Assembly (NCBI GenBank): GCA_964643065.1
Contig: CAZXPD010000005.1
Location: 8-64,007, forward strand
Source: an uncultured Gammaproteobacteria bacterium
GTDB lineage: Bacteria; Cyanobacteriota; Vampirovibrionia; Gastranaerophilales; CAZEDP01
DNA: 64,000 bases
Reading direction: 5' to 3'
A model generated the notes under the pieces. The model saw only the letters and a program-made list of their open reading frames with translations, had not been told where the DNA came from and made no database searches. Shown piece after piece: positions 13,443 to 63,004 of the stretch. The translations under genes were made by a program, and so were the position numbers. How positions within the stretch are numbered: position 1 is the first letter of the stretch; the number at the start of each line of letters is the position of its first letter.

Positions 13443-13556
13443 GCAGTATAATGATTGTTTTTTCACTATTTTAAACATAATTTAACCGGTTTTTTGGATA
13501 AAAGTTTTATTTCAGTTAAAATCTAGTTGATACAATTAAAAATCAACAGGTTTATT

Positions 13557-21246: not shown

Positions 21247-21514
21247 GATCGCGCTACACGGGGAACTAGCGATGCCCTGTACCTGCAATCGCTCCAGCAG
21301 GGTGGACAGCCCGCAGTGAGGCTTGATTGGTTGCAGAAGGCGGTTATGTAAAATTGTTGAGCAAAGGCTCCGATGCGGCGAAAGCCGGTGAACCTTGTCA
21401 GGTCGGGAACGAAGCAGCAATAAATCGTTACTTTCGGGTGCAAGCGGGTTTGCCTTTAGGAGATTTTACAGAACAATTCCTTGCAGCAAATCTTGTCGAA
21501 TGCGGGGCGCGGTC
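21247..21514 (+). ncRNA. ffs: large (Alu-domain) bacterial SRP RNA
   Basis: 5' Alu region GGGGAACTAGCGATGCCCTGTACCTGCAATCGCTCCAGCAGGG closely matches B. subtilis scRNA as I recall it. Helix 8 is GTCAGGTCG-GGAA-CGAAGCAGC. Terminal helix GATCGCGC/GCGCGGTC. Confidence 0.95.
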
Positions 21515-26779: not shown

Positions 26780-29700
26780 TTATAAATCAGCCCATGTCTT
26801 TTTGTAATCAGGTATCTGGAACGGCTTTGTAGGAAGACCGTTCATTGCCCATTCGTTATAGAGAGACATTTCAGTATCTTTAATATCATTGTAGAATTGA
26901 CTGCCTTTAAATGTTTTGTCGATATGAGTTGCATTACCGTTCTCATCGAAAACTCGCAGATTATTAATAGTATAATCTCTGTCAATAAGCTGTTTATGCA
27001 TATCTGTTCTGTTTCCGCTGAAATATCCCATTGTCTGAGCAAACTTCAAACATTTTGCTTTGTCGCTGCCCGCTGCATAGGCTTTAGTTTTGGCATCCGT
27101 TCCCGAAGGTCTAATTTCAACATACTGGGTGAGTTTACCGTTAGGGTCTCCGCCGTCAGTAAATTTCAAATAGGTGCCGTCACCGACAAACTTAATTTCC
27201 GCAAGATCGCTGAAATCAAGTTTTGGATATTTGTTGTTGAGCTTAGTTACCGCATCTTCAAGTTTAACATCGTCATTAAGAACTTTATTAAACATAACTT
27301 TTAGGTCGTTGATTTGATCTATGTCGAGTATTCTGAAGTCATTCTTAACATTATTTGTGCTTTTGATATTACTATTAAGAATTTCTGCCGAGTACTGCTG
27401 TTCCTTATCATCAAAATCGTATATTGCTTTATCTATCGTACTGCGTTCGTTTTGAATGGTAATTTTATCAAAAATAGCACCTATTTCAGACGGAAATTTT
27501 GTTGTATCTTTTAGCATATCTTTAGCATCGTCAAGCGATGCTATCTTATTAAAATACTTATCTGTAAGGATTGCCCTTATGTCGGTGAGTTGTTCAGTGC
27601 TTAATTTCTCAAAGACTTCTCTGCTGCCAAAATTAGCCGCAAATATTTCTACCGTTTCTTCTTTACTTAGTTTTTTAGCATCGATTTCTTTAATAGTTTT
27701 AATCATTGTCTCTTTTGTTAAACCCGAGAAATCGATACCCTTAAATGTATCTTCAAGAACTTCCTTGGCCTGAGCCTGAGTCATTGTTCCTAATTTAAGA
27801 GCAATTGCCATACTCAAATAGAATGAATCATTCTTTGTCCGTTTGTATTCACCTCTTTTTTTGGCGGCATCTCTAATGTTTGGATTTGTTTCACTTTCGT
27901 TATAGTAAAGAATATCTTCTCTGACATCGTATCTGCCTTGAATTTTATTTTCTTCAAAAACTTTGGCAAGATGGTCGGAAATACTCATTCCTTTAGGCAA
28001 ACTTGCAGCAAGAGCGGCTGAAACAATAATGGATTCGGTAGCACTTTTTTCTCTCATTGCAATGGCGACTCTGCCTGCTTTACTTTCAACAAGTTTCTCG
28101 GGTCCTATAATCATGCCTCCGCTTTCTTCGCCTGCAAAAACCATTCTCGGCTCTTCGAGCTGAATTTTTCCGTCAACTTCCTTTTTGCCCTTGCTGAGTT
28201 CTATTATGTTTCCATAGATATCTTCGATTTCAATCGGTTTAATTTTGTCATAGTTGTTATTTTGGAAGGCATTTCTGTTTTCTACAATCTGCTTTTCAAC
28301 TTTCTTCATTATATTGGCAATTTCTTTGAAACCTACAGGAACGTTAACAACGTTAACCCCGTTTGCATTTGCCCATTCATCCCATGACATTGCTGAAGCT
28401 GTTGTTTTAATAATAAATCTCGGGTGATTATCCCACAGGTCATCTTTTTTAAGCTGCTTCATCCAAAAGTCCATATTAAGCATAAAGCTTTGATTAGGGG
28501 TATATGATGCTAAAATCTTGCCTGTTCCCTGTAAAGACTTATTGGTATCACAAACATAGTCTATTCCGAGTTTATCGAGCTTTGCCCTGTTTTCAGGAGT
28601 ATCCTGTTCAACCTGCGCTATACAGAGCCTGTCATGATCAGGGTCGGTAATAAGTATGGTAGTTCCTACCGGTTTATTTGCTACATCAAATTCTACAAGT
28701 TCTTTGCCTTTATTGTCATACATTTTAGTATTGGCAAAATCAATGGTATCCAATACAGGGAAAGATTTTTTGCCGTCTTTTACGATAACTAATGAGCTGT
28801 CAACGGTATAATCATAAAACTTGCCGTCTTTTTCCCCCGTACCGATATTATGGAAGAAGGGATCTTCCTGAGGATGAAGCCAACGGAAATTTTTGCCGAT
28901 TTCCAAATTATCAAGCACTTTACTGAGGTTTCTAAAGGCAACACCACCGACGTTTTCGATTATCATAGGATTTTCCGTATTTTTTATGGCGTTAATGTTT
29001 GCAGGTGTTGCGATGCCGTCTCTAAGATATTGAGTATAAAGGTCTAAGCCGTTGTTAATTTTTTTCATTAATTGGGTATCAATGTGTTTATCGTCTCTGG
29101 CGGCGATTTCAATATCAACATAACCGTTGGGGTTGCTTTTAAGCTTATTCATTACGTTATTTTCAATTTGAGCAACGAATTTATTAGACTCTTCCGGAAT
29201 GTATTGGCTGCCCTGATCGTTAATATCTTTTGTAGCAGTCTTGAGCCTGATGGCGTGACTTGATGTTACATATTCGGCGCCAAGCATGTCTAATTTAAAG
29301 GCAAGGAAGGATGTAAGCCATACAGGCAGAGTAGTTCTTTGGCCGTCTTCATAAGGCGATTCATGAGTATAAATTCCGTTTGCTGCCTGAACTCTCTTGA
29401 TAAGATCAATATATGTGTCAGTATTGTATCTGACTTCACCGGTAGCAATTTTGTGAAGTTCTTCATTCGGATGGTCTGCTTTTGCTACCTGAGATTTACC
29501 CCAAGTTGCAAGGATAATGCCTATTGCATTAATAAAGTTCCTTGTATCCCAGGGATAAAGAGCGCTTTGATTTCCTCTAATGCCTGCTGTCGAAATATTT
29601 GCTTCTCTTTTATATGTATCAAACCATCTTTCTAAAGAAACTCCGAATTTATCTTCTTTTTTATCCCCTGCTTTATAATCTTCAAGATATTTACTGCTGA

Positions 29701-30109
29701 TTCTTAATGTATAGCCTTTATCAAGTTTTAAAATTTCGCTGAAAGGCATTGAAACAAATTGGTTTGTTCCGCTGATTTTGACATCATATTTAAGATTTTT
29801 GATATCGTTGGGTGTATTCTTATCAAGATTACTGAATAAGGTTCTTTCTGTCTCGCAGGAAAAATCTCTGCCGACTCTCTCTCTGTATCTGTCTTCAAGT
29901 GTCATCTCAACATCTTGAGCTTTAAAAGATACATTTTTATTCATATTGGTTACATTTACCAATTGTTTATTTAATTCACTCATTAATTGCAAGCCTCTAA
30001 GATCTGTACAGTTTTGGTTAACATTAACGGTATTTTTATTTTCGCAGTTTGCTTGTTTGTCCAAAGACACATTGGGTTTTGTTGATAAAATCAGATTTTG
30101 AAGTTTCAT
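26780..30109 (-). CDS. giant alpha-D-phosphohexomutase (phosphoglucomutase-like), 1109 aa
   Basis: STAGIRG, catalytic-Ser loop TSSH, metal loop DPDHDR, VGFK, GEESGG, RPSGT, all in the canonical order. Confidence 0.88.
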   Translation of the reverse strand: MKLQNLILSTKPNVSLDKQANCENKNTVNVNQNCTDLRGLQLMSELNKQLVNVTNMNKNVSFKAQDVEMTLEDRYRERVGRDFSCETERTLFSNLDKNTPNDIKNLKYDVKISGTNQFVSMPFSEILKLDKGYTLRISSKYLEDYKAGDKKEDKFGVSLERWFDTYKREANISTAGIRGNQSALYPWDTRNFINAIGIILATWGKSQVAKADHPNEELHKIATGEVRYNTDTYIDLIKRVQAANGIYTHESPYEDGQRTTLPVWLTSFLAFKLDMLGAEYVTSSHAIRLKTATKDINDQGSQYIPEESNKFVAQIENNVMNKLKSNPNGYVDIEIAARDDKHIDTQLMKKINNGLDLYTQYLRDGIATPANINAIKNTENPMIIENVGGVAFRNLSKVLDNLEIGKNFRWLHPQEDPFFHNIGTGEKDGKFYDYTVDSSLVIVKDGKKSFPVLDTIDFANTKMYDNKGKELVEFDVANKPVGTTILITDPDHDRLCIAQVEQDTPENRAKLDKLGIDYVCDTNKSLQGTGKILASYTPNQSFMLNMDFWMKQLKKDDLWDNHPRFIIKTTASAMSWDEWANANGVNVVNVPVGFKEIANIMKKVEKQIVENRNAFQNNNYDKIKPIEIEDIYGNIIELSKGKKEVDGKIQLEEPRMVFAGEESGGMIIGPEKLVESKAGRVAIAMREKSATESIIVSAALAASLPKGMSISDHLAKVFEENKIQGRYDVREDILYYNESETNPNIRDAAKKRGEYKRTKNDSFYLSMAIALKLGTMTQAQAKEVLEDTFKGIDFSGLTKETMIKTIKEIDAKKLSKEETVEIFAANFGSREVFEKLSTEQLTDIRAILTDKYFNKIASLDDAKDMLKDTTKFPSEIGAIFDKITIQNERSTIDKAIYDFDDKEQQYSAEILNSNIKSTNNVKNDFRILDIDQINDLKVMFNKVLNDDVKLEDAVTKLNNKYPKLDFSDLAEIKFVGDGTYLKFTDGGDPNGKLTQYVEIRPSGTDAKTKAYAAGSDKAKCLKFAQTMGYFSGNRTDMHKQLIDRDYTINNLRVFDENGNATHIDKTFKGSQFYNDIKDTEMSLYNEWAMNGLPTKPFQIPDYKKTWADL

Positions 30110-31184: not shown

Positions 31185-31919
31185 ATGCGTGGAATTACAA
31201 ATCAAAGAAACAATTTCCTTTATACCAAGAATAATCAACAAAAAATAAAAACCGGTTCGAATTTTTCAATCAATCATAATAAAAATAATCTGTCCTTTAA
31301 AGGCGGTGCAGGGTTGGAATTTTGGATGGGATGGTGGCAAACTTTTTCTTCAGTGCTTGCGGTTGACATACTTTTGATTGTAGCCGCCTATTCAGCAAAA
31401 AAGAAACTTAGTCTCAATTCTGAACTTAAAAACGTCATCTGGCTTTTTAAAGACAGAGAAAAAGACTTCTGCAAAGAAATGAGCAGTGAAATCCAGTCAG
31501 TAATCTCATGTATGGATAATTGTCTGACTTCAAGAGCCAATTTAAAGCCGTCCGACAGGAAAAAAATACTGTCAATACAAGGTGCTCTGACCGAAACAAA
31601 TGATAAATATCTTATTTTATCTCCTGAAACTTCAATACAGGAAAAATTATCAAGGCGTTTATTTAACCCTGATAAAAGAGAAAGCCATACCCAAGAAGTT
31701 CTGCCGACGAAATTTCATCTTATTAACAAGCTGAACGATATCGAGACCAAATGGAAAAAATATTGGAACGGACAAAATATTGATGCAAAAGGGCAGACTT
31801 TAATTTATCAGCCTGTCGTGATGAAGTTGGAAAAAGCTATTGGAATTTTGAACTCTATTCACAGCGGCAATTTTGCAGCGGCTACGGATGCTGCATTTGA
31901 AACAGTTGCACATACTTAA
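31185..31919 (+). CDS. hypothetical protein with Asn-rich leader (..NLSFKG) and one hydrophobic segment
   Basis: 244-aa ORF, no known domain. Confidence 0.75.
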   Translation: MRGITNQRNNFLYTKNNQQKIKTGSNFSINHNKNNLSFKGGAGLEFWMGWWQTFSSVLAVDILLIVAAYSAKKKLSLNSELKNVIWLFKDREKDFCKEMSSEIQSVISCMDNCLTSRANLKPSDRKKILSIQGALTETNDKYLILSPETSIQEKLSRRLFNPDKRESHTQEVLPTKFHLINKLNDIETKWKKYWNGQNIDAKGQTLIYQPVVMKLEKAIGILNSIHSGNFAAATDAAFETVAHT

Positions 31920-40100: not shown

Positions 40101-40865
40101 CTATTCATTAAGGAAAGGTTTTTCAAAAAGATACTTTATCGGTTTGCTTCTGCTGTTAGGCACTTCTCTAAAACCGGCTTCTTGCAAACTGTCCATAATA
40201 TGAAGGCTTCCGTTTACGTTTTTGTTATATTCCAGTTCACCAACCACGAGGATACTTCCGGGCTGAAAATTATTATATAGGTCAAGAGCCAGTTCGCGAA
40301 CCTTATTTGGAGTTTTTAAATCTACCCATGCATTTCTGAAAAATAAAACAACCGGCTTTTTAAATTCTTTTTGAGCATCAACGGTTATATCCCCTTTTTC
40401 GAAAACAACTTTATTCCTGATTTTTTCTGATACCGCATAAGTGTTGTTTTTCTTATGTATGAAATAATCATCGAAAACCAGGTTTTTCAAAAGATTTCCA
40501 AATAGTCTTTTTTCATCTCCTTCAATTGTTAAAACACCGTAATCTGCAGCCTTAAGCATTTTTGAGGAAATATCTTTTGCTTTAATTTCAAAATATTTTT
40601 CGGCTCTTTTTTCTCCGAAAAAGTTGATAATTAAAAGAGCTATGCTGTATGGTTCAGAACCGTTTGAGCACCCGTAAGAGATTATTTCAGCGCCGTTTGG
40701 AAATCTTTTTGAAAGAATTTGGGGCAGTTCAACCGGCATTTCCCTCAAAATTGAAGTTGCATTATCGTGCATGACATGATCACTGCTTCTGCTTCTTTTA
40801 TAAGTTCGTTCAAAATTAGGGCTGAAAGCATGGGTTTTATATGTGTTTAATCCGCAAATTTGCAA
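40101..40865 (-). CDS. orphan CheR-like SAM-dependent methyltransferase
   Basis: SYGCSNGSEPYSIA, AKDIS, KVVFEKGDI, LFFRNAW, PGSILVVGE. CheR N-domain absent. Confidence 0.75.
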   Translation of the reverse strand: MQICGLNTYKTHAFSPNFERTYKRSRSSDHVMHDNATSILREMPVELPQILSKRFPNGAEIISYGCSNGSEPYSIALLIINFFGEKRAEKYFEIKAKDISSKMLKAADYGVLTIEGDEKRLFGNLLKNLVFDDYFIHKKNNTYAVSEKIRNKVVFEKGDITVDAQKEFKKPVVLFFRNAWVDLKTPNKVRELALDLYNNFQPGSILVVGELEYNKNVNGSLHIMDSLQEAGFREVPNSRSKPIKYLFEKPFLNE

Positions 40866-43382: not shown

Positions 43383-44867
43383 TCAAATTAATGTTTCAGC
43401 AATCTCTAGATTATAGTCATTTAAAACTTCTTGTGTTGAAATTACCGATAAACAGGGGAAAATTTCTTCAAAAAGTAAAAAAAGATTAAGCCGTATTTCA
43501 GGTTGAGCGATGATTACCGGATATTTGTTCTCAAGATTGGAATTTTTAATAAAATCGGATACTTTTTTAAGAACCTGCTTTAATTTTGGAGATTTTAATT
43601 TTTTTTGAATTGTTTCTTCCGGTAATTTAAAAAGCTTTTTCATAAATAAAGCAAATTCTTTATTTATGTCAATTGCTGTAATATTGCCGTTTTCATCACT
43701 TATATTGTCACAAATTTGTCTCGAGAGTTTTTTGCGGATAATTTCAAGGATTTCCTCGTTACTTTCAGCTTCCGGCGCAATGTCGTTGAGCTTTTCGAAA
43801 ATGTAAATTATATCTTTAACGGAAACTCTCTCTCTTATTAGTGAAGCAAGAATAAACCTGATATCTCCGACCGATAAATTATCGGGAATGAGGTTTTCAA
43901 TGAGATAAAGATTTTGTGTACCCACTATTTCGACATATCTGCTGATATCCGTGTAATCCATAATTTCATCAGCGTACTTTAAAACGATAAACTCTAAATT
44001 CCGTGTAATAACCTGAGCAGGATCCAGGCCCTTTTCCCAATAGTTTTTGGTTTTTGATTCTTCTATCCAGAACACTTTTTTTAAACTGATTAAATCAAGG
44101 TCTTCAATCGAATCTTTAGGTTTTTTTGTTATATTTGACTGACCTTCGTAGTATCTTAAATAGTTGGGATAAACAATTCCCGAATAAACCTTTACGCCTC
44201 GTACATCAATCCTGTATTCATTTGCGTTTAAGGTTTCAGAATTGGTAAATTTAATGGCGGGAATCACATAACCGAGTTCATCGGTAAGTTTTTGTCTTAA
44301 TTTCACCGTTTCGGTTATAAGCGGAGCGCCCTTTTTATTTTCTAGAAGCGAAATGAGCTCATCGCTTAGAACTATGGTAAGCCTTTCCTGATTAACTCTT
44401 TCGTACATTTTCTCAGGATTCAGCACGTCTGCCAGTTGACTTTTGAGGTTCTTAAGCTCATTAAGTTTTTTTGTTATCTCTTTGTTGAGCTTTTCATGTT
44501 CGACATCGCTGCTCACTGAATCGAGAAGGTTTTTGACTTTATCTGTTTCTTTCTGTTTAGAATCAATTTTTTCCAATAACTCTTTTGCCAGAGTATATGG
44601 TTCATCCTGCGGGTTAAACATTTTTTCCAGTCTGGATTTAAAATCCGGGACATCGACCATTTCGTCCGATTCAAGTCCTGTTTCGATTTCAGTTTCTCTG
44701 GTAAATATACAATTATATTGAATAGAGCCCTTCTTAGATTCTGCTTCATGAAGCATATAAAGCTCCCAGCCTTCTTCTGCCATTGAATTAAGCAAGGCTT
44801 CAAGCGTATCAGGTTCATTAACCGGGCATGTTTTGACACTGTATTCGTTGCGGGTATCTTTAATCAT
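43383..44867 (-). CDS. soluble FHIPEP protein: DUF4177-like N-domain + coiled coil + FlhA/SctV C-terminal domain, no TM region
   Basis: LEALLNSMAEEGWEL (DUF4177-like). LRQKLTDELGYVIPAIKF...NEYRIDVRG and DPAQVIT...LSVGDIRFILASLIRERVSVKDIIYIFE match FlhA-C patterns. Confidence 0.8.
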   Translation of the reverse strand: MIKDTRNEYSVKTCPVNEPDTLEALLNSMAEEGWELYMLHEAESKKGSIQYNCIFTRETEIETGLESDEMVDVPDFKSRLEKMFNPQDEPYTLAKELLEKIDSKQKETDKVKNLLDSVSSDVEHEKLNKEITKKLNELKNLKSQLADVLNPEKMYERVNQERLTIVLSDELISLLENKKGAPLITETVKLRQKLTDELGYVIPAIKFTNSETLNANEYRIDVRGVKVYSGIVYPNYLRYYEGQSNITKKPKDSIEDLDLISLKKVFWIEESKTKNYWEKGLDPAQVITRNLEFIVLKYADEIMDYTDISRYVEIVGTQNLYLIENLIPDNLSVGDIRFILASLIRERVSVKDIIYIFEKLNDIAPEAESNEEILEIIRKKLSRQICDNISDENGNITAIDINKEFALFMKKLFKLPEETIQKKLKSPKLKQVLKKVSDFIKNSNLENKYPVIIAQPEIRLNLFLLFEEIFPCLSVISTQEVLNDYNLEIAETLI

Positions 44868-44916
44868 TTAAAAGACTTTGTTGAATTTTAATTATTATAG
44901 CAGGAATTAGGGGTAA

Positions 44917-47139: not shown

Positions 47140-48417
47140 ATGAATATAGCCGGTTCAAATCCTTTTAAATCTTTTAATACGCTCAAAAAACATCCTCGGC
47201 AAAATGTCGGCAATGATAAACAAATATGCCGAAACAATAAAGATTCTTTTGAAAGAGTCAGCTTTAAAAATTTTCCGGTAGGAGCTGAGGGTTTTCTCTC
47301 AGCAAGCGTGTTAAAGGGTACCGGAAGAATTAACCCTGCTGATGTTGCCAGATTAAGCGAACTTATCGGGGAGGAAATGTCAGGTCTGATACAGAGAGCT
47401 ATTCAAAGTAATATTCCTTTAGACCCAACTCAACTTGAAATGATAAGCTCAATAGCTAATTTGAAGAAAGTGCTTGAAGAGCTCCAGTCAAAAGTGCCCT
47501 GCGGAGAGTATAGAGTTGAAAAAGACAAGCTTATTGTAACCTATTTTAAACCTGATTCCGCTACAAATAAGATAGTGCCTAAGACAACAGAAATTTGTAT
47601 CCAAAATCCCAGAGCAAAGAAACCGGTTAAAGTATTCGGACCAAACACCGATGCTCTGCAGTTTAAGGAACAGGCGTTTTCAGTCAAGCCTTATGTTACG
47701 GTAGGACCTGTGGGATGGACAAAACTAAAACCGGCTATTGTTGAAGCAAACGGATTTGATTTGTCATACTGGGGAGATGAAAAAGCGAAGGTAACGGCAT
47801 TGGCAAAAGCTTATGCAAAAGGCACCATGAAGTTGTTTACACCTGTTTATGATTATTTGCTGAAGGCGGACTGTAAACGTGAAAGAATAGCGTTTGTTAC
47901 AAGTGCCACGAATGAAGGTGTTGACGAAATATTTATGACCCTTTCAAAAAAACGAAAGGTTCCTACGGCAACCATAATCCCTTATCAATATGCAAGTTAT
48001 ATGGATAAAAACCACAGATTTCCACTTCTGATAACAAATAACATCCCCCGTTACGGAGATGCATTTTCTGATATTGCCGATATAACGCTTATAACCGGCG
48101 GAAGAGATCACGTTTGGCACGTTGATTTAAAAGATCAGCTTGTTGATAACAAAAAATGGGCTATTCCGGTGGATGTCCTGAAAGAATATCTGGGAATAGA
48201 AATCCCCGCGACAAACAGTCAGGGCGATTTGGAAAATTCCGCAAGACTTCTTTTGGATAGAGGATTTACTCCACCGTACAATCTTGATAAATTGTTTGGT
48301 GAACTTCCGGAAAATGAACTTAAATCAAAATTGACAACGGATTCCCAAAAGCTCTTAGCTGTTCAGATGTACAAAAAATACATTGCCGGTGAAAGAGCGG
48401 CCAGGATTGTTGCCTGA
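47140..48417 (+). CDS. hypothetical protein with leader (..DSFERVSFKN) and possible SLOG-like C-terminal domain
   Basis: TVGPVG...VTSATNEGVD...TIIP...ADITLITGG...WAIPVD echoes SLOG/LOG motifs. Family call tentative. Confidence 0.6.
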   Translation: MNIAGSNPFKSFNTLKKHPRQNVGNDKQICRNNKDSFERVSFKNFPVGAEGFLSASVLKGTGRINPADVARLSELIGEEMSGLIQRAIQSNIPLDPTQLEMISSIANLKKVLEELQSKVPCGEYRVEKDKLIVTYFKPDSATNKIVPKTTEICIQNPRAKKPVKVFGPNTDALQFKEQAFSVKPYVTVGPVGWTKLKPAIVEANGFDLSYWGDEKAKVTALAKAYAKGTMKLFTPVYDYLLKADCKRERIAFVTSATNEGVDEIFMTLSKKRKVPTATIIPYQYASYMDKNHRFPLLITNNIPRYGDAFSDIADITLITGGRDHVWHVDLKDQLVDNKKWAIPVDVLKEYLGIEIPATNSQGDLENSARLLLDRGFTPPYNLDKLFGELPENELKSKLTTDSQKLLAVQMYKKYIAGERAARIVA

Positions 48418-48439: not shown

Positions 48440-50230
48440 CTAAATGTTGCAAATATTTCCTTTAAACTCTTCCCTGCTTAAAAAAGGAAACATGTCTTCA
48501 AGGGGCTTTGAGATGATTTTCCCGTCGGGAAGCTTCTCTGACGACAATTTCGGGCTGAAAGTATAATCGGTCTCAAGCATTACTTCGCAGACAACAGGTC
48601 CTTTTGTTGTCAGTACTTTTTCGATGTTTTCTTTCAGGTTTTTACTGCTTTCGATTTTTATTGAAGGCAAGTCGAAAGCCTTGGCAACCTTGACAAAATC
48701 AGGAATGCTGACGCCTGATTCTTTGCCCGAAGCAACGTATCTGCCTTCAAAAAACGCATCCTGAGTTTGTTTTATGGAAATATAACCCTCGTTATTTAAA
48801 ATGAAAAGTTTGATAGGAAGCTTGTAATGACGAACTGTTTGAAGCTCCTGAAGGTTCATCATAAGACTTCCGTCACCCGCAATGCAGACAACGTCTTTTT
48901 CTTGGTTTGCAAAACAGGCTCCTATTGCGGCAGGCAAATCATATCCCATAGACGCGCAGCCCGAGTTCCAAAAAATCCTCTGCCCCTTTTTAACCTTTCC
49001 GGCCTGAAAAAGACAGACACATGCCGTTCCGTTGCCCGCAACGGCAACATCTTTTTCTTTCATGCAGGAGGTTAAAACCTCGATAAAGTAATAAGGATTT
49101 ATCAGTCCTTCTTTTTTTCTGTATTCGGGAAGGACAACAGGGTATCGTTTTTTTCTTTCAATGCACCACTCAAGCCACGAATTGTATGAGGATAATTTGT
49201 CTTTTTTGAGGAGGGCTTTTAGCTCGTATAAAAAATCTTTTACATCAGCATTTATGGCGATATCGGGCTTTACGGTTGGCTTTTTAAGCTCGGCTTCGTC
49301 AATATCAACAATTATTTTTTTACCTTTTCTGACAAAGAACTCACTGTTGTAGCTGACCTGCCTTATGTTATTTCGTGTACCCACAAACAAAACAACATCA
49401 GCGTTTTGTAGAGCAAAATTCCCGGCTCTGTCTCCTACGGTTCCAATTCTGCCGACAAATAACGGACTATCGGATTCTATTAAATCAAACCCGTTAAAAG
49501 TTGAAACAACAGGAATTTGAAGTTTTTGAATCAGCTCTAAAAATAACTCTTGAGCTTTTCCGAGCCTTACGCCATGCCCTGCAACAATTAGAGGTCTTTT
49601 GGCATCTTTGAGCAGTTTATATGTTTCCCGAACTTTTTCTTTCAGGGAACTCTTATTATTCTCTTTATCAGGTTTAAACCCTTCAAGACTTTCTTCATCA
49701 ACAAAAGCCCCCTGAATATCTATCGGAACGTCAATCCAGACCGGACCGTGTCTCTTGTCGGTCATCAAAAAAAGAGCCTTATCCATTATGAATTTTATAT
49801 CTTCAGGCTTTTCAACAGTTACGGCATACTTTGTGAGAGGTTTTATAACAGTCGTTATATCGACTTCCTGATCGCCGAGCTGTCTTAATCCGATGTCGGG
49901 ATTAAATTTAACACAGGTTTGCCTTTTTACCTGTCCTGAAATGTATATCACAGGAACGCAATCCGTCCATTGTCCCATTAAACCCGTTAAGGTGTTTAAT
50001 CCTCCCGGACCCGTGGTTACTATAACAGCGGCGGGCTTGCCCGAAACTCTTGAATATCCCTCGGCGGCTATTGAGGAAGCCTGCTCATGATGGTTGCAAA
50101 TGTACTTAATGTCTTTACATTTGCCGACGGAGTCGTTTAAATGCATTGCCCCGCCGCCGGAAATCATAAAAACATGCTCAAACCCCTCTTTTACCAGTCT
50201 TTTTATAATATAGTCAGATACTTTTATCAT
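48440..50230 (-). CDS. ThDP-dependent acetolactate-synthase-like enzyme (polysaccharide-locus type)
   Basis: GGGAMHLND, HHEQA, TTGPGGLN, GDGSLMMNLQEL...LNNEGY. Confidence 0.9.
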   Translation of the reverse strand: MIKVSDYIIKRLVKEGFEHVFMISGGGAMHLNDSVGKCKDIKYICNHHEQASSIAAEGYSRVSGKPAAVIVTTGPGGLNTLTGLMGQWTDCVPVIYISGQVKRQTCVKFNPDIGLRQLGDQEVDITTVIKPLTKYAVTVEKPEDIKFIMDKALFLMTDKRHGPVWIDVPIDIQGAFVDEESLEGFKPDKENNKSSLKEKVRETYKLLKDAKRPLIVAGHGVRLGKAQELFLELIQKLQIPVVSTFNGFDLIESDSPLFVGRIGTVGDRAGNFALQNADVVLFVGTRNNIRQVSYNSEFFVRKGKKIIVDIDEAELKKPTVKPDIAINADVKDFLYELKALLKKDKLSSYNSWLEWCIERKKRYPVVLPEYRKKEGLINPYYFIEVLTSCMKEKDVAVAGNGTACVCLFQAGKVKKGQRIFWNSGCASMGYDLPAAIGACFANQEKDVVCIAGDGSLMMNLQELQTVRHYKLPIKLFILNNEGYISIKQTQDAFFEGRYVASGKESGVSIPDFVKVAKAFDLPSIKIESSKNLKENIEKVLTTKGPVVCEVMLETDYTFSPKLSSEKLPDGKIISKPLEDMFPFLSREEFKGNICNI

Positions 50231-50243
50231 AATAACTGCCTTT

Positions 50244-51263
50244 TTAATTTAGTATTTCGTCAAATTTTTCTTCAGGTACATTATCGATATTATCAGTTTT
50301 CGGCAAAACATCGGGCATTGTACAGTATTTACAGGACGGATTTTCGTGTCTTCTTCTTTGAAGATGCATAAGCCTCATCTCCCTTAGTTTTTCACCTTGC
50401 CAAATTTCAGACAGGCTTTGTTCTTTGAGGTTACCGACTATTGTGGCATTGTTCCAGTCAACGCAGCATAAGACAACATCTCCGCCGGACTTAACCGCAA
50501 GCGTAAAAAACGGATACGGACAGACTTCTTTTTTGTCTATCACTGCAAAATTCCAATCATCGCAATTGTTTTCAAAAGAGTTTTTTGTAATTTTGTTCCC
50601 TTCATAACCGTTCCAGTTCGTAAGAGGTTCAACCGCAATTTCATCGGCAATATCCTTATAAGTATTTAGAAAAGCCTCTGTTTCAATGTTATTAAGAGAA
50701 TCTATTGTTTTTATGTACAAAAACGGCTCTTTTTTATTTAATTCATTGCGTATTTTTTTAAAATTTACGATGTTATTATAAATATCTTTCACATCAAAAT
50801 CAGTTCCGGTTATTTGGGAATTCATTCTCTGATTGACTGAATAAATAGATATGCGTAAATGAGTTAAACCTGAGTAAATCAGCTTTTTAGACATTTCTTC
50901 CGTTAAAAGGACGGCGTTAGTATAGATTTCAATTCTATCTGCAATATTTGACTGCGAAGCCAGCTCAATCATTTCGGGTAAATTCCTGTTCAATAAAGGT
51001 TCTCCCTCATCAAACAGACGCAAACACTTTAGTTTTCCCATTGATTTTATGTCGCTTACAATTTTTTTATATAAATCCATATCCATGTTGCCTTTATATC
51101 CGGCAAACTGTTCATATTGGGAAAATGATTGGACACAGTGATAACATTTAAAATTGCATAAATTTGTCGGTTCGATATTTATACTTAGCGGCATTTTTAA
51201 CGGAAGAATGTCGCTAAGCGGACTTCTGTAATCTGCCCTGTTTTCATAATAAACCTGTTTCAC
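50244..51263 (-). CDS. radical SAM protein with SPASM/twitch domain
   Basis: CNFKCYHC (CxxxCxxC), GEPLL, CPYPF...GDVVLCC...CKYC. Confidence 0.92.
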   Translation of the reverse strand: MKQVYYENRADYRSPLSDILPLKMPLSINIEPTNLCNFKCYHCVQSFSQYEQFAGYKGNMDMDLYKKIVSDIKSMGKLKCLRLFDEGEPLLNRNLPEMIELASQSNIADRIEIYTNAVLLTEEMSKKLIYSGLTHLRISIYSVNQRMNSQITGTDFDVKDIYNNIVNFKKIRNELNKKEPFLYIKTIDSLNNIETEAFLNTYKDIADEIAVEPLTNWNGYEGNKITKNSFENNCDDWNFAVIDKKEVCPYPFFTLAVKSGGDVVLCCVDWNNATIVGNLKEQSLSEIWQGEKLREMRLMHLQRRRHENPSCKYCTMPDVLPKTDNIDNVPEEKFDEILN

Positions 51264-51286
51264 CCTAAATCTTCTTTCCTTCTTTT

Positions 51287-52063
51287 CTATTTTTGAGAAA
51301 AATATTTAAGTATTTCTTTTAAATCTTTGAAAACTAAAAAATTATCGTCAGATTTTTCTTTGTATAAATTATCACGGGAAATTAAAAAAGAGGCGCATCC
51401 AAACTTTTTAGCCATTTCTATATCACTGGAATAGCTGTCGCCGATAACCAATATTTCTTTATTTTTTAAGCCTGTATCATTTGATAATAATTCAATCATC
51501 AAAGTATTCGGCTTACCTGCTATATAATCGGCTTTTTTGCCGCCGGCGGCTTCAAGCGCGGCAACCAGAGCGCCGCAGCCGGGCAGTGTTTTGCAATCTC
51601 TGCCGGGATAATTAACGTCATAGTTGCAGGCAATGATTTCAGCTCCGTTTAAAACAACTGACGCGGCTTTAGAAAGCTTTTCATAATTGAAATTCAAATC
51701 CAGACCTACTACAACAGCCTCAGCTTGTTCTTCTTCGGTTATATTAATTCCCTGAGAAGATATTTCTTCCCTTAAACCCTTTTCTCCGAGAACAAAAACA
51801 TTTTTATAACCGTTTTGCTTCAGATAAAGCGAAACGGTAAAAGCCGATGTGTATAATTCTTTTACAGAGAGCTCAAAACCAACCGATAAAAGTTTATCGA
51901 CAACTCCCTGCCGTGTTTTGCTGGAGTTATTGGTCAAATAAAAAACTTTTAAGTTCTTTTTTTTAAAAAAATCTGTTAATTCAATTGCTCCGTCTATCGG
52001 AGTGCTTCCGTAGCATAGTGTTCCGTCAATGTCCAGAGCAACCGCTTTTATATCATTAATCAT
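51287..52063 (-). CDS. HAD-IIA (NagD-like) phosphatase
   Basis: DIDGT, LTNNSSK, GKPN, IGDSYSSDI. Confidence 0.92.
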   Translation of the reverse strand: MINDIKAVALDIDGTLCYGSTPIDGAIELTDFFKKKNLKVFYLTNNSSKTRQGVVDKLLSVGFELSVKELYTSAFTVSLYLKQNGYKNVFVLGEKGLREEISSQGINITEEEQAEAVVVGLDLNFNYEKLSKAASVVLNGAEIIACNYDVNYPGRDCKTLPGCGALVAALEAAGGKKADYIAGKPNTLMIELLSNDTGLKNKEILVIGDSYSSDIEMAKKFGCASFLISRDNLYKEKSDDNFLVFKDLKEILKYFSQK

Positions 52064-52078
52064 AGCTGTTCTCTAAAA

Positions 52079-52894
52079 TTAAACGCAAACTCCGCCCGCT
52101 TCGGCAATCAATTTTTCATACCTTGCTTCCAGATACTGGATTCTGTATTGGTCTTCCATGTGTATCATTCCGTAGAAATTACGTTTATTTTTCAGCCACA
52201 TGAGCTCAAAACCGACTGCTTTCAGAATTCCTTTATCAGGATCTTTTTTAAGAGCTTGCGGGCATTTAAATATTACTTTTCTGGTTTCGTAACGGTCAGT
52301 GAGACCTTCCGGCAGTTTGTTTATAAACCTGACCGTTTCTGCGGAAACCCCGCCTCCGATTGCACACTCCAGAGATTTTTCTTTTGCTTTTTGAAATATA
52401 ACATTTGTTATATCAAAGATTTCATCACAGTTAATGTCTTCTCTTGTTAATCCCATTGACTGCGTCATATCAACTCTTCCCAACACTATACCGTCGAGAT
52501 ATTTAACTTCTTCAATTGAAAGAATTTCGTCAAGGTTTTTAAAAGCTGTTATAGTTTCAATATTGACGAGGAAATCAACCGTATCGTATTCTTCTTCGGT
52601 AAAAACCAGTTTTGTTGCAGAAATAAATTTTTTCAAAGCATAAGCTGTTTCTATCATCGGGGCAACAATTCTTGAAACGCCTATAACTCTTGCTTCATAC
52701 ATATCTTTAATTGCTTCACATCCGCCTATTTTAATGGTTAAATCTAAATCGGCTCTCGAAACGACTTCTTTAAGCCTAAGAGCTTCTTCCAGTCTGGTTC
52801 CTTCAGCTTCAAATTCTGCTTTAACCCCTATAACTTCATGATTTTCCTTTAAGTCAATAAGCGTATCGACCATTCTTTGTTCGAGATTATTCAC
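52079..52894 (-). CDS. HpcH/HpaI aldolase / citrate lyase-family protein
   Basis: GVKAEFEAEG, IKIGGCEA, VAPMIET, VNIET, LGRVDM. Confidence 0.8.
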   Translation of the reverse strand: MNNLEQRMVDTLIDLKENHEVIGVKAEFEAEGTRLEEALRLKEVVSRADLDLTIKIGGCEAIKDMYEARVIGVSRIVAPMIETAYALKKFISATKLVFTEEEYDTVDFLVNIETITAFKNLDEILSIEEVKYLDGIVLGRVDMTQSMGLTREDINCDEIFDITNVIFQKAKEKSLECAIGGGVSAETVRFINKLPEGLTDRYETRKVIFKCPQALKKDPDKGILKAVGFELMWLKNKRNFYGMIHMEDQYRIQYLEARYEKLIAEAGGVCV

Positions 52895-53254: not shown

Positions 53255-54598
53255 TTAAGGGACAACATTTCCTGTTGATAAATCAACGGAGAGAGGATTT
53301 TGCAGTTTAATAAAGAGAGGTTCGCCGCTTGGCAAAATAATTGCTCCCCCTTGCTGTAATATTGCGCCCAGTGCACCGAGTCCTCCGCCGATAGCTGTCC
53401 CGTATATAGCGCCTTTGCCGGTTTTTCCGGTAATTGCACCGAGAGCTGTTCCTAATACGGCACCGGCACCTGCTCCGCCGGCAGTTTTAAGCAGTCCTCT
53501 TCCGAGAGTAGATTTCATTGAACCGGCTTGAATCATACCTGTTTCAGTTGCAACACTTGCCTGAAGCGGGAATGTTTGTCCGTTTGTCAGCTGAAGAGTG
53601 TTAAAAGTAATATTCATGCTGGCGTTTCTGTTTGCGTATTTAGCGGGTTCAACTAACGAAATTGTTCCGATTATTTTGCTGCCCGCGGGAATTAAAACAG
53701 TACCCTGACTCGTGCTGACGTTTTCGGATACTCTTACTATTACGGTATCGCCGACTTTTGCTAATTCACTGCTTATAGGGGTTTCAAGAATTGTCGGGAT
53801 AACACTGTTTTCCTGAATAGTTGCAATGTTGCCTTTCAGCACAACTTGATTAACTCCTCCTGTTGCAAGACTTTCCGTAACCTGCTGAACGTTAACCGGC
53901 TGCTGCTGATAACTTTGACTTTGTGAAGGCTGCATTGCTTGCTGTTGAGGCATGTATCCTATACCTAAATTGTTTCTTAAATTAAAAAGCATTTCGGCAA
54001 CTTCTGCTCTTGTTGCTCTTTTTTGAGGAGAAAGAAAATTTGGCTGGGGATAATTAACCGCAATATTTGCTCTTACTGCCTTTGCAACCGGGACTTTTGC
54101 CCATGAAGGAACTTTATACCCGTCATAGAAGCTTTTCAGTATCTCATCGGCTTGCGCATTAGTCATATAATCATTAGTCAAAGCAGATGAAAGAATTGCC
54201 AGAACTTCGGCTTTTGTAATATAGGCATTGGGACGGAAAGAACCGTCGGGAAAACCTTTTATTAAGCCGGCAGAATATGCTCTTTGAATATTATCGTAGC
54301 CCCAGAAATAATTTGACACATCATTAAAATCATACATGTTGGAAGGCGCAACATTATCTCTGCCAAGTGCTTTTACAATCATTGTTGCAAATTCCGCTCT
54401 GGTTACGGGATTATTAGGTTTAAAGGTCATATCCTGATAGCCTGTTAGAATATTTTGTTCCGATAATGCCTGAATAGAATTATAAGCCCAATATCCCGAA
54501 TTTAAGTCACTGAAATTTTGAGCATTTACCGAATTAAATACGCTAAAAGCGATGCCTGCAGAAACTAAATAACACACCAAATTCTTTTTGGTTAACAT
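53255..54598 (-). CDS. S-layer homology (SLH) domain protein with C-terminal TrbI/VirB10-like beta domain and glycine zipper
   Basis: Signal peptide, three SLH repeats (FKPNNPVTRAEF, FRPNAYITKAE, ATRAEVA), IPAGSKIIG, GAGAVLGTALGAI. Confidence 0.88.
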   Translation of the reverse strand: MLTKKNLVCYLVSAGIAFSVFNSVNAQNFSDLNSGYWAYNSIQALSEQNILTGYQDMTFKPNNPVTRAEFATMIVKALGRDNVAPSNMYDFNDVSNYFWGYDNIQRAYSAGLIKGFPDGSFRPNAYITKAEVLAILSSALTNDYMTNAQADEILKSFYDGYKVPSWAKVPVAKAVRANIAVNYPQPNFLSPQKRATRAEVAEMLFNLRNNLGIGYMPQQQAMQPSQSQSYQQQPVNVQQVTESLATGGVNQVVLKGNIATIQENSVIPTILETPISSELAKVGDTVIVRVSENVSTSQGTVLIPAGSKIIGTISLVEPAKYANRNASMNITFNTLQLTNGQTFPLQASVATETGMIQAGSMKSTLGRGLLKTAGGAGAGAVLGTALGAITGKTGKGAIYGTAIGGGLGALGAILQQGGAIILPSGEPLFIKLQNPLSVDLSTGNVVP

Positions 54599-60521: not shown

Positions 60522-61658
60522 TTAGGAAGCGGTAATTTTGGCGATTGTTTGTTCAATGAGACTGAGACTTTCTCTGTCACCCTGTTTTGAATAATATTTT
60601 CTTGCTATTTCAAAGTATTCTAACGCTTTGACCTTATTTCCCAATGTCAGATTACATTCTCCGAGTTCAACAACGGGGTCGATTTCATAATAAGGCATTA
60701 ATTCGTAAGATTTTTCAAAATCAGCAATGGCAGCGTGAATATCTCCGGCAGATTTATTGATAAAACCTCTTATATGGTAATAAACATGATTCTGTGAATT
60801 ACATTTAATGGCAGAATCCAAGTCTTTTAATGCTTCAGGATATCTTTCCAGACCCATGTAAGCTAAACCTCTTTGAAAAAACGCGCCTTCATTATTAGAA
60901 TCTTTGCTCAAGCACTTATTGCAAGTTGCGACTGCCAAGTCATAAACGTCCAGATTGACTTCACAGTTTGCTTTTTTTACCAGTATTTCCGTTATTTTGT
61001 TATTTGGGTTTTCTGTTTTGCCGTAGCATTCTAAAGAATTTTCGAAGCAATCATAGGCTTCATCAAGACGGCCTGTTTCTAATAATATTTTACCCTTTGT
61101 ATAATAACAATCAGAATCATAAGGAGCTAAATCTATTGCCTTATCAATAGTTTCTTCCGCTTTATCTAAATCATCAATGTCAATATATGCATTAGCCTTT
61201 ATGTAATAAAGAAAAGAACTTTCGGGATCAATTTCAAGTGCGTTGTCGCAGCATTTAATAGCGTCAGGGCTTCTGCCCTGACGTCTAAGGCTTTCAGCTA
61301 AAAAACCATGGGCAGTAGTGAGCTTAGGATTAATTACTGTTGCCATTGAGAAGTCTTCTTCAGCTTGTTCATAATTTTTTAAGTTTAAATAAGCCAAGCC
61401 TCTTCGAAAAAACGCCGTTTCATTATTAGGATTTAATTCAATAATGTCGTCCAGCACTGTAATTGCTTCAGTATATTTCTTTTTGGCGGACAATGCCCTA
61501 GCCTCTTCCAAAAGAGCATCTTCATCTAAATCTTTGTATCTGACTCCAAAACAAACAGTATCTGCTGACAGGACGTGTTTCTTCGTGAAAGAATCCCCGT
61601 TTTCTTTAAGAAAAACAGGAGGAGTAGAGTTTATAAATGGTATATGGAAAATTTTCAC
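60522..61658 (-). CDS. TPR protein with N-terminal leader (MKIF...DSFTK...DTVCFG)
   Basis: Multiple 34-aa TPRs. GTG start overlaps the upstream stop (GTGA). Confidence 0.9.
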   Translation of the reverse strand: MKIFHIPFINSTPPVFLKENGDSFTKKHVLSADTVCFGVRYKDLDEDALLEEARALSAKKKYTEAITVLDDIIELNPNNETAFFRRGLAYLNLKNYEQAEEDFSMATVINPKLTTAHGFLAESLRRQGRSPDAIKCCDNALEIDPESSFLYYIKANAYIDIDDLDKAEETIDKAIDLAPYDSDCYYTKGKILLETGRLDEAYDCFENSLECYGKTENPNNKITEILVKKANCEVNLDVYDLAVATCNKCLSKDSNNEGAFFQRGLAYMGLERYPEALKDLDSAIKCNSQNHVYYHIRGFINKSAGDIHAAIADFEKSYELMPYYEIDPVVELGECNLTLGNKVKALEYFEIARKYYSKQGDRESLSLIEQTIAKITAS

Positions 61659-63004
61659 TGTTTATAATTCCCTTCTTGCAATAAATCTTGGATTAAATTT
61701 TTAATTTGATCAATTTTTTTCGATTGTTTGCTTTGGATATAAATTTTCATAAGCCTTTTAGCATCTTCCAACGCACCTGAAATATTAGCTAATTTTCTTC
61801 TGCAGTCAAGCCTGTATAATAAGTAATGCTCATTGTCCGGTTCTTTTTTAAGCGCTTGTGAATAATCTTTCTCTGCACTCTTAAAATCCCCCGTTTTTTC
61901 TTTGTAAGTGCCTCTGGCAAAGTAATTTTGAGCATTATCGGGAGACAGACTGATTGCAGTGTTTATGTCTTCAAGAGCTCCTTTGATGTCATTCAATTTG
62001 AACTTTGAATATGATCTTATATAGTAAGCAACAGAATCCCCGGAATCCAACTTTAATGCTTTATCAGCTTCAGCAATTGCCAAATCATATTTATCTATGT
62101 GATTAAGACACATGGCTTTGTTTAATAATGCAAATTCGTTTTTGGGGTTTAAATTGAGACAGTTGCTATAGTCATCTATTGCGCTGTTGTAATCTTCCTT
62201 TTTTTGAAAGATAAAACCTCGGTACTGGAACCATTCGCTTTGTTTTGGATTAAGTTTAAGGGCTATAGACTGATCTTCCAGTGCTTCTTCAAAAAGACGT
62301 AAATTAGCTTTACACAAGCCTCTTTTCATATATGCTTCGGCATCTTTATCGTTAACGTCAATTGCATTATCAAAGCTGTTTATTGCTTCTTCAAACTGTC
62401 CTGTCGCAGAAAATATACAGCCTTGCGAAAAGTAATACTCACCTTGATTAGAATCTAATTCAATTGCTTTTTCAATATCCTTTAAAGCCGCATCGTATTC
62501 GCCCATATCAAAATAAAACGTAGAACGATTCGAAAACAGTTCGGGACTTTTTGGATCTAGTTCTATCGACCTGTCAAAACTTTCAAGCGCCTCAGCAAAT
62601 TTCCCCTGACAGGAAAGAACATTACCTAACATACCGTAATGAAAGGCATTCAAAGGATCAATCGCGGTTGCCATACTTGCATCTTCTTCAGCTTCCTCAT
62701 ATTTGCCCAAATTCAAATATGCATCGGCTCTGCAAATAAAAGCCTCATCATTGGAGGGATTTATTTCTAGTGCTCTGGAATATTGTTCTATTGCATCATC
62801 AAAATTACCGTCCCCGCATAATTTATGTCCTTTTTCCACAAAAGCAGCTTCCTCACCTGGAAGAGCAGATACATTCTGTCCGAAGCAAATGGTATCAGTA
62901 TTAAGGGGCTGTAAAAAAGGAACAGAATGACCGTAGTTTTTACTTTTTTGCTGCTGTTTCACACAATCAATATTACTAAATGCCGGTGCCGAAAAAATTT
63001 TCAT
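61655..63004 (-). CDS. TPR protein with N-terminal leader (MKIF...DTICFG)
   Basis: About 11 TPRs after a 42-aa leader. Confidence 0.9.
   Translation of the reverse strand: MKIFSAPAFSNIDCVKQQQKSKNYGHSVPFLQPLNTDTICFGQNVSALPGEEAAFVEKGHKLCGDGNFDDAIEQYSRALEINPSNDEAFICRADAYLNLGKYEEAEEDASMATAIDPLNAFHYGMLGNVLSCQGKFAEALESFDRSIELDPKSPELFSNRSTFYFDMGEYDAALKDIEKAIELDSNQGEYYFSQGCIFSATGQFEEAINSFDNAIDVNDKDAEAYMKRGLCKANLRLFEEALEDQSIALKLNPKQSEWFQYRGFIFQKKEDYNSAIDDYSNCLNLNPKNEFALLNKAMCLNHIDKYDLAIAEADKALKLDSGDSVAYYIRSYSKFKLNDIKGALEDINTAISLSPDNAQNYFARGTYKEKTGDFKSAEKDYSQALKKEPDNEHYLLYRLDCRRKLANISGALEDAKRLMKIYIQSKQSKKIDQIKNLIQDLLQEGNYKQ

Follow-up and report, generated by a model that had tools for sequence, protein, structure and literature searches.

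Why should a bacterium of the order Gastranaerophilales encode the cytoplasmic domain of the flagellar export gate FlhA as a separate, soluble protein? The question is raised by a gene on the minus strand of a 64,000-nucleotide stretch of contig CAZXPD010000005.1 (assembly GCA_964643065.1), the whole of which is here called the window. The domain, known as FlhA-C in flagella and SctV-C in injectisomes, forms a nonameric ring that docks chaperone–substrate complexes; all type III export systems centre on this docking ring, which has so far been studied within the membrane protein only. A soluble FlhA-C with N-terminal modules of its own is a natural experiment on the function of the ring apart from the gate. 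An earlier reading of the nucleotide sequence by itself (the original prediction) had described such a protein here, and our analysis suggests, with about an even chance, that it is a soluble accessory FlhA-C of a flagellar-type export apparatus, acting with FliJ and FliI on early substrates. The product is called the paralogue below. The features of its gene are, in window coordinates:

43383..44867, minus strand: coding sequence of the soluble FlhA-C paralogue, 494 amino acids (aa) plus stop, ATG start (open reading frame (ORF) list, Pfam, homologues, dN/dS)
44688..44867, minus strand: DUF4177-like beta-alpha-beta-beta domain, residues 1–60 (alignment, Pfam, AlphaFold2)
44604..44687, minus strand: acidic low-confidence linker, residues 61–88 (AlphaFold2 confidence, alignment)
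44421..44603, minus strand: two long helices (H90–117 and H121–149), a coiled-coil-like hairpin, residues 89–149 (AlphaFold2 secondary structure)
44382..44420, minus strand: FlhA-linker-like segment 'NPEKMYERV', residues about 150–162 (alignments with E. coli FlhA and with P0147, a canonical melainabacterial FlhA)
43386..44381, minus strand: four-subdomain FlhA-C fold, D1–D4, residues 163–494 (Foldseek, conserved sites)
44894..44902, minus strand: extended -10-like promoter element TGCTATAAT (sequence reading, pattern search)

The gene had first been placed at 43383–44902. It is real, but the upper coordinate marks the promoter-like element and not the end of the coding sequence. The start 'MFKxxRxEY' is kept across the family, and the start codon is sound because the N-terminus aligns with this conserved start in an alignment of more than 40 homologues.

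Fold and absence of a membrane domain

The paralogue matches the Pfam family FHIPEP (PF00771) with E = 2.6e-54 and 185.3 bits against a cut-off of 29.1 bits. The match aligns residues 133–484 with positions 310–655 of the 657-position profile and covers the cytoplasmic C-terminal half alone. The closest sequence match in the PDB is FlhA-C of B. subtilis (3mix, E = 3e-27), followed by that of H. pylori (3myd). A monomer model was built with AlphaFold2 from a 41-sequence family alignment (mean predicted local distance difference test score, pLDDT, of 83) and compared with the PDB by Foldseek. The best match was 6ch3_A, Salmonella FlhA-C with FliS-FliC (E = 7e-23, target-normalised TM-score 0.82), the top 50 matches were exclusively FlhA-C or SctV-C chains, and the top FlhA-C matches had target-normalised TM-scores of 0.74–0.84. 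The FlhA-C patterns that the original prediction had recognised from about residue 160 onward are thus borne out by profile and fold alike.

The same prediction had seen no hydrophobic transmembrane block, and hydropathy analysis agrees. With a threshold of 1.8 for a 19-residue Kyte–Doolittle window, the 494-aa protein peaks at 1.59, within D4. Transmembrane-like segments are absent from all 84 family members (maximum window 1.71, and 1.01 in the N-terminal 165 aa), whereas the same test finds six segments in P0147. The scores against the NCBIfam equivalog models are below the cut-offs for both the flagellar FlhA model TIGR01398 (171.8 bits against 772.1) and the injectisome SctV model TIGR01399 (88.5 bits against 692.25). 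The paralogue is a protein with an FHIPEP domain, not an equivalog of FlhA.

Conserved and altered sites

Functional sites were compared in an alignment of 84 family members, 134 canonical FlhA proteins (mostly melainabacterial) and 55 proteins of a second non-canonical family, type B, described below; residue numbers are those of E. coli FlhA. The equivalent of R391 (R191 in the paralogue) is invariant in all three groups (84/84 in the family, 133/133 canonical and 55/55 type B). The equivalents of G399, P403, W465, L544, F558, E559, D563, R579, R655 and E676 are likewise invariant in the family (84/84), and those of R423, D508 and D553 nearly so (83/84). Other sites are altered. The GYXLI hinge (368–372) is replaced by S-(E/D)-E-L-I, with Ser at the position of G368 in 84/84 members against Gly in 133/133 canonical proteins. 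The chaperone-binding dimple triad D456/F459/T490 is incomplete in the family: the acidic D456 is retained (84/84), the position of F459 is Thr or Ser in 80/84 members (59 Thr, 21 Ser) against an aromatic residue in about 130/133 canonical proteins, and the position of T490 is mostly Arg or Lys (53 and 10 members). The scaffold and several conserved charged positions are retained, whereas the changes in hinge and chaperone pocket are fixed and specific to the family; this pattern of remodelling is consistent with a function that has changed and not one that has been lost.

The FlhA-C part is about 25% identical to that of melainabacterial canonical FlhA and 18–25% to canonical FlhA-C, compared with about 41% for type B. 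In profile comparisons, melainabacterial FlhA scored 268 bits against at most 196 bits for FlhA of other phyla. These scores, together with the shared linker motif described in the next section, suggest that the family arose by an old duplication within the class.

With its membrane domain missing, its equivalog score under the cut-off and its GYXLI hinge and dimple altered, the paralogue should not be annotated as an export gate. Database calls of 'flhA present' may rest on a protein unable to be the gate, with consequences for what is inferred about motility and 'complete' flagellar gene sets.

N-terminal modules and linker

The first 60 residues form a compact domain with the elements E5–15, H19–31, E35–43 and E49–60, modelled in isolation with a pLDDT of 93. 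It is among the best-conserved parts of the protein, with invariant or near-invariant Y9, L25-L26-N27, W34, E41 and Y51-N52-C53-I54-F55, and its dN/dS ratio (omega) is 0.00–0.10. Its score against DUF4177 (PF13783) falls short of the 25-bit gathering cut-off, whether the full protein (14.7 bits) or the isolated domain (18.9 bits) is scored. N-domains of 30 of 32 family members match PF13783 at E ≤ 1 (best 4e-5), and 8 of the 32 match DUF2812, all below the gathering score. The name 'DUF4177-like' seems fair as judged by these profile matches, although certified membership is not reached. The N-domain profile found no sequence match in the PDB, and a fold search of the PDB gave nothing significant, with weak matches to dodecins (E about 0.03, TM-score about 0.5); no solved DUF4177 structure that could be compared was identified in these searches.

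The segment that follows is rich in Asp and Glu across the family, varies in length and sequence, and has a pLDDT below 50 at residues 61–87; the modelling suggests that it is probably disordered. The two predicted helices behind it (omega 0.00–0.06) have weak, generic coiled-coil matches in Pfam (Fib_alpha, E = 2e-4, below cut-off). Of the DUF4177-like and coiled-coil domains that had been proposed for this region, the first is upheld at a sub-threshold level and the second as two predicted helices, but the coiled coil itself has no specific Pfam match.

The segment 'NPEKMYERV' aligns at the position of the FlhA linker, FlhA-L (E351, W354 and D356), with residue correspondences that shift between alignments. 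The motif NPxxMYE is common to the paralogue, to canonical melainabacterial FlhA (P0147, 'LINPNRMYEKLGVD') and to the type-B proteins, and P151 is near-invariant, being present in 40 of 41 aligned members.

Distribution and selection

A word-indexed search returned more than 120 protein clusters of 463–518 aa, covering 98–100% of the query at 39–89% identity. Those with names belonged to Candidatus Melainabacteria or Gastranaerophilales and were called 'FHIPEP family type III secretion protein' or 'flagellar biosynthesis protein FlhA'. In an exhaustive profile search of 1.84 billion representatives (a 50%-identity set), the family formed a separate score tier of 15 full-length representatives at 484–717 bits, after which scores fell to about 270 bits. 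A scan of one genome per GTDB species showed that at least 443 genomes encode a relative; the best 80 of these were almost all metagenome-assembled genomes (MAGs) of Gastranaerophilales from human, chicken, rabbit, ruminant and horse guts. The paralogue is near-universal and order-wide in Gastranaerophilales. One Gastranaerophilales MAG, CALOAD01, has two copies (L011 10001–11455 and L018 2276–3727; 48% and 42% identity to the query), which are either true paralogues or the product of a mixed bin.

Nei–Gojobori dN/dS ratios for 12 independent pairs of family members were 0.019–0.065 overall (0.052 between the window and the relative L090) with similarly low values in each of the four regions (N-domain, linker, helical segment and FlhA-C part), so that all modules are under strong purifying selection.

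Genomic context and the flagellar export remnant

No universal neighbour or conserved operon partner was found in a neighbourhood survey of 83 loci. Recurring in the neighbourhood are ClpP, a PSP1/RicT-like protein, holA/holB-like genes, AspRS, BamA, Skp and a protein of about 175 aa without a Pfam hit; the rest are housekeeping genes. The gene for the 175-aa protein lies ahead of the paralogue gene, on its strand, in 28 loci, as does the PSP1/RicT-like gene in 22. No injectisome genes were found in any locus examined.

Two loci differ from this pattern. In L014 (Gastranaerophilales bin BRZ_CV bin38, a 610-kb contig) and L016 (Ca. Adamsella avium, Cyanobacteriota/Melainabacteria group, an 852-kb contig), infC and rplT are followed by the paralogue gene and then, on the same strand, by genes for FliJ (PF02050, E = 1.4e-17), FliK (PF02120, 1.4e-18), FlgD (PF03963, 1.2e-20) and an FlgE-type hook protein. 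The downstream genes are in the classical fliJ-fliK-flgD-flgE order, with the paralogue gene at the head, and the lineage is flagellated. This operon ties the paralogue to flagellar type III export. The gene had originally been placed upstream of gatC-pyrG rather than in a flagellar cluster. The gatC-pyrG neighbourhood is right for the window and for L090 and L091, both close relatives, but is not general in the family, and a flagellar cluster does surround the gene in L014 and L016.

Published gene inventories show what remains of the flagellar system when motility is lost. Di Rienzi et al. reported 13 flagellar genes common to four genomes, including one without a complete set, and two of the 13 are 'flhA'; one of these, on an ACD20 contig of about 5.9 kb, matches the family member P0006 (ACD_20C00161G0002). 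Of the 9 Gastranaerophilales genomes studied by Soo et al. (2014), only 3 had complete flagellar sets. According to their supplementary table (PMC4040986), the non-flagellated genomes keep FlgB, FlgC, FlgF/G, FliE, one 'FlhA', FlhB, FliI, FliJ, FliP and FliR, and are without FliF/G/H/M/N, FlgD/E/K/L, FliC/D and MotA/B, as well as the FlhA-C-binding chaperones FliS, FlgN and FliT. A 2026 preprint puts complete flagellar sets in about 25% of the order's genomes; the remainder keep flhB, fliI, flgG and others, a remnant postulated by the authors to act in secretion (bioRxiv 10.64898/2026.04.24.720558). The paralogue belongs to what persists after motility loss, alongside FliJ and FliI. Its distribution, which the original prediction had wanted compared with that of type III export, is thus tied to it through the fliJ-fliK-flgD-flgE operon and through an order that retains the core of the flagellum's type III secretion system when non-flagellated.

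A possible role in flagellar-type export

From its place at the head of a fliJ-fliK-flgD-flgE operon, and from its retention with fliJ, fliI and rod genes where late genes and chaperones have disappeared, we infer that the paralogue may act with FliJ and FliI on early export. In such a scenario it would assist the flagellar-type type III export apparatus throughout the order, as an accessory part and not the gate itself. The DUF4177-like domain, the acidic linker and the helical hairpin stand where FlhA has the eight helices of its FHIPEP membrane domain. Instead of a membrane anchor, the N-terminal domain and hairpin would supply oligomerisation or tethering, and the conserved FlhA-C surfaces and the linker would let the protein form oligomers or dock onto the export machinery. 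The paralogue would engage FliJ and the FliI ATPase complex and influence early (rod/hook-type) export, whether by providing a further platform for docking or holding, or by regulating how the gate is activated or specificity is switched. In canonical systems, FliJ binds the FlhA linker and FlhA-C and so activates the gate. The switch from hook to filament is accompanied by remodelling of the FlhA-C ring, as outlined in PMC8166844, PMC5916509 and PMC10965912. The ligands of the paralogue are probably not classical filament-type chaperone complexes, because the pocket is remodelled and FliS, FlgN and FliT are absent from non-flagellated members. The 'soluble adaptor, sorting platform or decoy' of the original prediction appears to be a reasonable class of mechanism, given that the fold is that of FlhA-C, that purifying selection is strong and that the distribution is tied to type III export. 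An accessory role would bear on how early-substrate export or specificity switching is modulated, and on why non-motile Gastranaerophilales, which are enriched in non-industrialised human guts, retain a flagellar export remnant.

Several observations weigh against an accessory role in export. The gene stands alone among housekeeping genes in the window and in most lineages, and linkage to a flagellar operon is seen in 2 of 83 loci, both from one lineage. No flagellar or other type III secretion system (T3SS) genes were found among the annotated window ORFs between 19.8 and 64 kb (about 45 kb), ORFs below 19.8 kb being unscanned. Conserved interactions cannot be assumed, since identity to canonical FlhA-C is about 25% and the GYXLI hinge and dimple are altered. 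Finally, a full-length canonical flhA of Gastranaerophilales was not found, and the P0147 query returned its own order, Vampirovibrionales; this does not amount to absence, because a 50%-identity set of representatives would collapse a Gastranaerophilales orthologue under the Vampirovibrionales FlhA.

Other evidence on a full-length flhA is as follows. A tblastn search with the FlhA transmembrane domains found no FHIPEP membrane domain in any of the fetched loci. Other representatives of about 700 aa that were considered as canonical FlhA turned out to be type B or to come from other phyla, and P0351, considered as a Gastranaerophilales FlhA, is environmental with a G+C content of 0.435. The 'FlhA' gene in the table of Soo et al. 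lies four genes from fliE (PMC4040986), whereas inspection of the recurrent small ORFs near the paralogue in the 83 loci, done without a Pfam scan, recognised no FliE-like gene; the annotated 'FlhA' is for this reason probably a different FHIPEP protein. This mildly favours coexistence of a canonical FlhA with the paralogue in the same genomes.

Alternative explanations

One alternative is a split FlhA, in which a membrane protein with the N-terminal part of FHIPEP would be completed in trans by the paralogue, the latter providing the sole cognate FlhA-C ring and attaching through its N-domain and hairpin. A near-universal and strongly constrained gene, retention of the linker-like motif and of the R391 and D456 equivalents, and a flagellar operon position in a flagellated lineage are all consistent with such an arrangement. 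So are the lack of a canonical Gastranaerophilales FlhA in our searches, in which the 50%-identity set could hide an orthologue, and the fact that the 13 shared genes of Di Rienzi et al. list two 'flhA' only, one apparently of this family. We nevertheless regard a split FlhA as unlikely. The same class does have a canonical FlhA of full length (Vampirovibrionales; P0147, more than 120 clusters), and its orthologue in Gastranaerophilales would be collapsed in the 50%-identity set, which leaves the absence unproven. The FlhA-C domain of the paralogue is, at about 25% identity, more distant from the canonical domain than that of type B at about 41%, residues conserved in canonical proteins are changed (G368 to Ser, the aromatic F459 position to Thr or Ser), and the 'FlhA' of Soo et al. 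near fliE is probably a separate gene.

It is also conceivable, though improbable, that the paralogue is a decoy or negative regulator, a soluble FlhA-C that would compete with the gate ring for FliJ, the ATPase or substrate complexes and thereby delay or limit export. Solubility, the FlhA-C fold with several conserved surface residues, and the position as first gene of the fliJ-fliK-flgD-flgE operon would suit this role. Competition for docking sites on FlhA-C has a precedent in FlaG, which competes with FliS-flagellin for FlhA (PMC11536152). A pure decoy would, however, have no need of a strictly conserved N-domain and hairpin (omega ≤ 0.1), and the paralogue is kept where hook, filament and chaperones have been lost and little is left to titrate.

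The original prediction had further named the paralogue as a candidate reader of 'leader-motif' proteins. These are unrelated proteins that share a recurrent N-terminal element, 'MKI(N/S)xIxP...' or similar, followed within about 10–45 residues by [hydrophobic]-[STC]-F-[KGT]-[GN], for example 'LSFKGG', 'PVSFGK' or 'TICFGQ'. The carriers include TPR proteins, a CheR-domain protein, membrane proteins, a glycogen-synthase-like enzyme and small unknowns. In the window, the element is present in the following ORFs:

47140–48417, plus strand: leader-motif ORF
31185–31919, plus strand: leader-motif ORF
60522–61658, minus strand: leader-motif ORF
61655–63004, minus strand: leader-motif ORF
10169–10558, minus strand: leader-motif ORF
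2595–2927, plus strand: leader-motif ORF
40101–40865, minus strand: leader-motif ORF

Outside the window the motif is present in L038_10, L024_13, L021_8 and L089_8 and in clusters c4, c9, c11 and c23. It was found in 10 cluster representatives compared with 2.2 ± 1.5 in shuffled sequences, which is modest support, and its core is about 5-fold denser within the first 70 residues. The first crude regular expressions gave no convincing N-terminal enrichment, and the modest enrichment was obtained with a pattern built from actual examples; raw tripeptide enrichment was discarded, as it was dominated by homologous families.

In this third alternative the paralogue of non-flagellated Gastranaerophilales would be a repurposed sorting receptor that selects special substrates, possibly proteins with the 'MKIxxIxP...SFKG' type of leader. 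We consider this very unlikely. The flagellar secretion remnant has been postulated to secrete substances (bioRxiv 10.64898/2026.04.24.720558), the chaperone dimple is remodelled in a conserved, family-specific way, the leader-like motif recurs in the order, and some genes adjoining the paralogue carry it. This adjacency is anecdotal, though, and we found no link between motif and paralogue by co-variation, fusion or operon. The strict motif is present in just about 1.4% of protein clusters, and because several carriers have predicted membrane segments after the motif, the leader may serve another role. In the most far-reaching version, the gate-ATPase-rod remnant kept by the roughly 75% of the order without hook, filament, C-ring and chaperones (bioRxiv 10.64898/2026.04.24.720558; PMC4040986) would be a working protein secretion machine. 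A ring-forming paralogue would serve as its platform for choosing substrates in the cytosol and would read the 'MKIxxIxP...SFKG' leader, a new class, through its remodelled D1–D2 pocket. This is a long shot; if true, it would amount to a new chaperone-independent sorting route for a flagellum-derived secretion system in gut bacteria.

A non-functional decayed flhA fragment or mis-called ORF, as might be supposed from the TIGR01398 score far below the cut-off (171.8 against 772 bits) and from the presence of the C-terminal half of FHIPEP alone, is ruled out by an omega of 0.02–0.065 with low values in all regions, by a length of about 485–500 aa, a start and an architecture kept across hundreds of genomes, and by a conserved promoter element.

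Relation to known proteins and to a second FlhA-C family

An accessory FlhA-C has several partial counterparts. With the FlhA-C structures 3a5i, 6ch3, 3mix, 3myd and 7amy the paralogue shares the four-subdomain fold, the linker-like segment and the invariant sites; unlike FlhA, it has no FHIPEP membrane domain, has altered GYXLI and dimple residues, and usually lies outside flagellar clusters. The C-domains of SctV/YscV/InvA/MxiA/CdsV have the same fold (Foldseek E about 1e-18, target-normalised TM-score about 0.75–0.8), but the paralogue is more distant from them in sequence, being closer to flagellar FlhA than to injectisome SctV by the NCBIfam scores given above, and has neither their membrane domain nor, in the loci examined, an injectisome context. 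The closest concept, by analogy, is FlhX of Campylobacterota and some other bacteria, a soluble protein that duplicates the cytoplasmic domain of the gate protein FlhB from a gene of its own and has a 'spare part' role in Helicobacter. FlhX derives from FlhB and is essentially a bare domain, whereas the paralogue carries conserved N-terminal modules; the two are not homologous. FlhX is named in PMC9321776 and PMC10746217. No description of stand-alone FlhA-C paralogues was found in the open literature searched.

A second, larger non-canonical FlhA-C family, type B, is present in Melainabacteria (P0144, P0150–P0160, P0162–P0169, P0403 and others). Type-B loci include:

L005 10001–12079: type-B gene
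L007 10001–12103: type-B gene
L093 626–2407: type-B gene

Type-B proteins consist of a helical N-domain ('FDYKxFA...AEWTFHK...QKIAF'), a charged linker, 0–5 transmembrane helices that are not of the FHIPEP type, and FlhA-C with an NPxxMYERxGVD linker. Like the paralogue, they have no FHIPEP membrane domain and retain the NPxxMYE motif; unlike it, they have an unrelated N-domain, often 2–5 transmembrane helices, and the GYXLI glycine in 52/55 members. Their genes are standalone, on contigs with a G+C content of about 0.36 from the same metagenomes as Gastranaerophilales bins. A profile search with the type-B N-domain for contigs shared with the paralogue gave short proteins or fragments only, and Pfam was negative for FliE near the type-B gene of L005.

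Two further proteins contain the type-B N-domain. P0202 (1139 aa, L092 630–4049) combines it with FlhA-C (PF00771) and a FliI/SctN-type ATPase (PF00006 and PF18269). It may be a 'Rosetta-stone' fusion linking a non-canonical FlhA-C to a T3SS ATPase, on a single 4.5-kb contig and thus possibly an assembly artefact. P0469 (234 aa, L094/L095 10001–10705) represents the N-domain alone, as a protein of about 232 aa. Its gene lies directly upstream of two others (neighbours 10977–13542), for a receiver-ParA/CbiA (TadZ/CpaE-like) protein and a T2SSE-family ATPase, and this position hints that the type-B N-domain could be an adaptor for secretion ATPases.

Promoter and surrounding genes

The original prediction had noted an extended -10 element upstream of the gene, and it is indeed present at 44894–44902 on the minus strand. 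TGCTATAAT lies 26 nt from the ATG, inside a 49-bp gap after the upstream gene of glycosyltransferase family 2 (GT2). A scan for consensus -35/-10 promoters did not call it, a good -35 being missing, and the pattern TGNTATAAT is not enriched in the AT-rich window (3 observed, 3.7 expected). In the 89%-identical relative (L090/L091), the element and the adjoining 32 upstream nt show 100% identity, compared with five changes in the 26 nt between TGCTATAAT and the ATG and a divergence of dS about 1.1 at the synonymous sites of the gene. Such full conservation despite the synonymous divergence is reasonable evidence that TGCTATAAT is a functional promoter element.

The gene order in the window is a GT10 fucosyltransferase-like gene, GT2, the paralogue, gatC, pyrG, cdd and a CheR-domain protein gene, and it is the same in L090 and L091. 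The CheR methyltransferase-domain protein (40101–40865, minus strand; PF01739, E = 3e-21), one of the leader-motif carriers, has an N-terminal extension of about 55 residues and is encoded among housekeeping genes; no further chemotaxis genes were found among the annotated window ORFs (19.8–64 kb).

Other features of the window include a large-type bacterial signal recognition particle RNA (21249–21512, plus strand; RF01854, 145 bits) and a protein that combines two SLH domains with a TrbI-like domain (53255–54598, minus strand; PF00395 and PF03743), also conserved in L090. A block at 48440–52894 (minus strand), syntenic in L090/L091, encodes a thiamine pyrophosphate-dependent enzyme, a radical-SAM/SPASM protein, a HAD hydrolase and an HpcH/HpaI aldolase-like protein beside two glycosyltransferases, and is probably a sugar or phosphonate-type modification cluster. 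The product of 26780–30109 (minus strand) is an 1109-aa protein with a long N-terminal region, whose sole Pfam signal is a weak match to phosphoglucomutase domain III (E = 8e-8). A phosphoglucomutase-like protein resembling it is encoded near the type-B gene of L093 (5338–7632).

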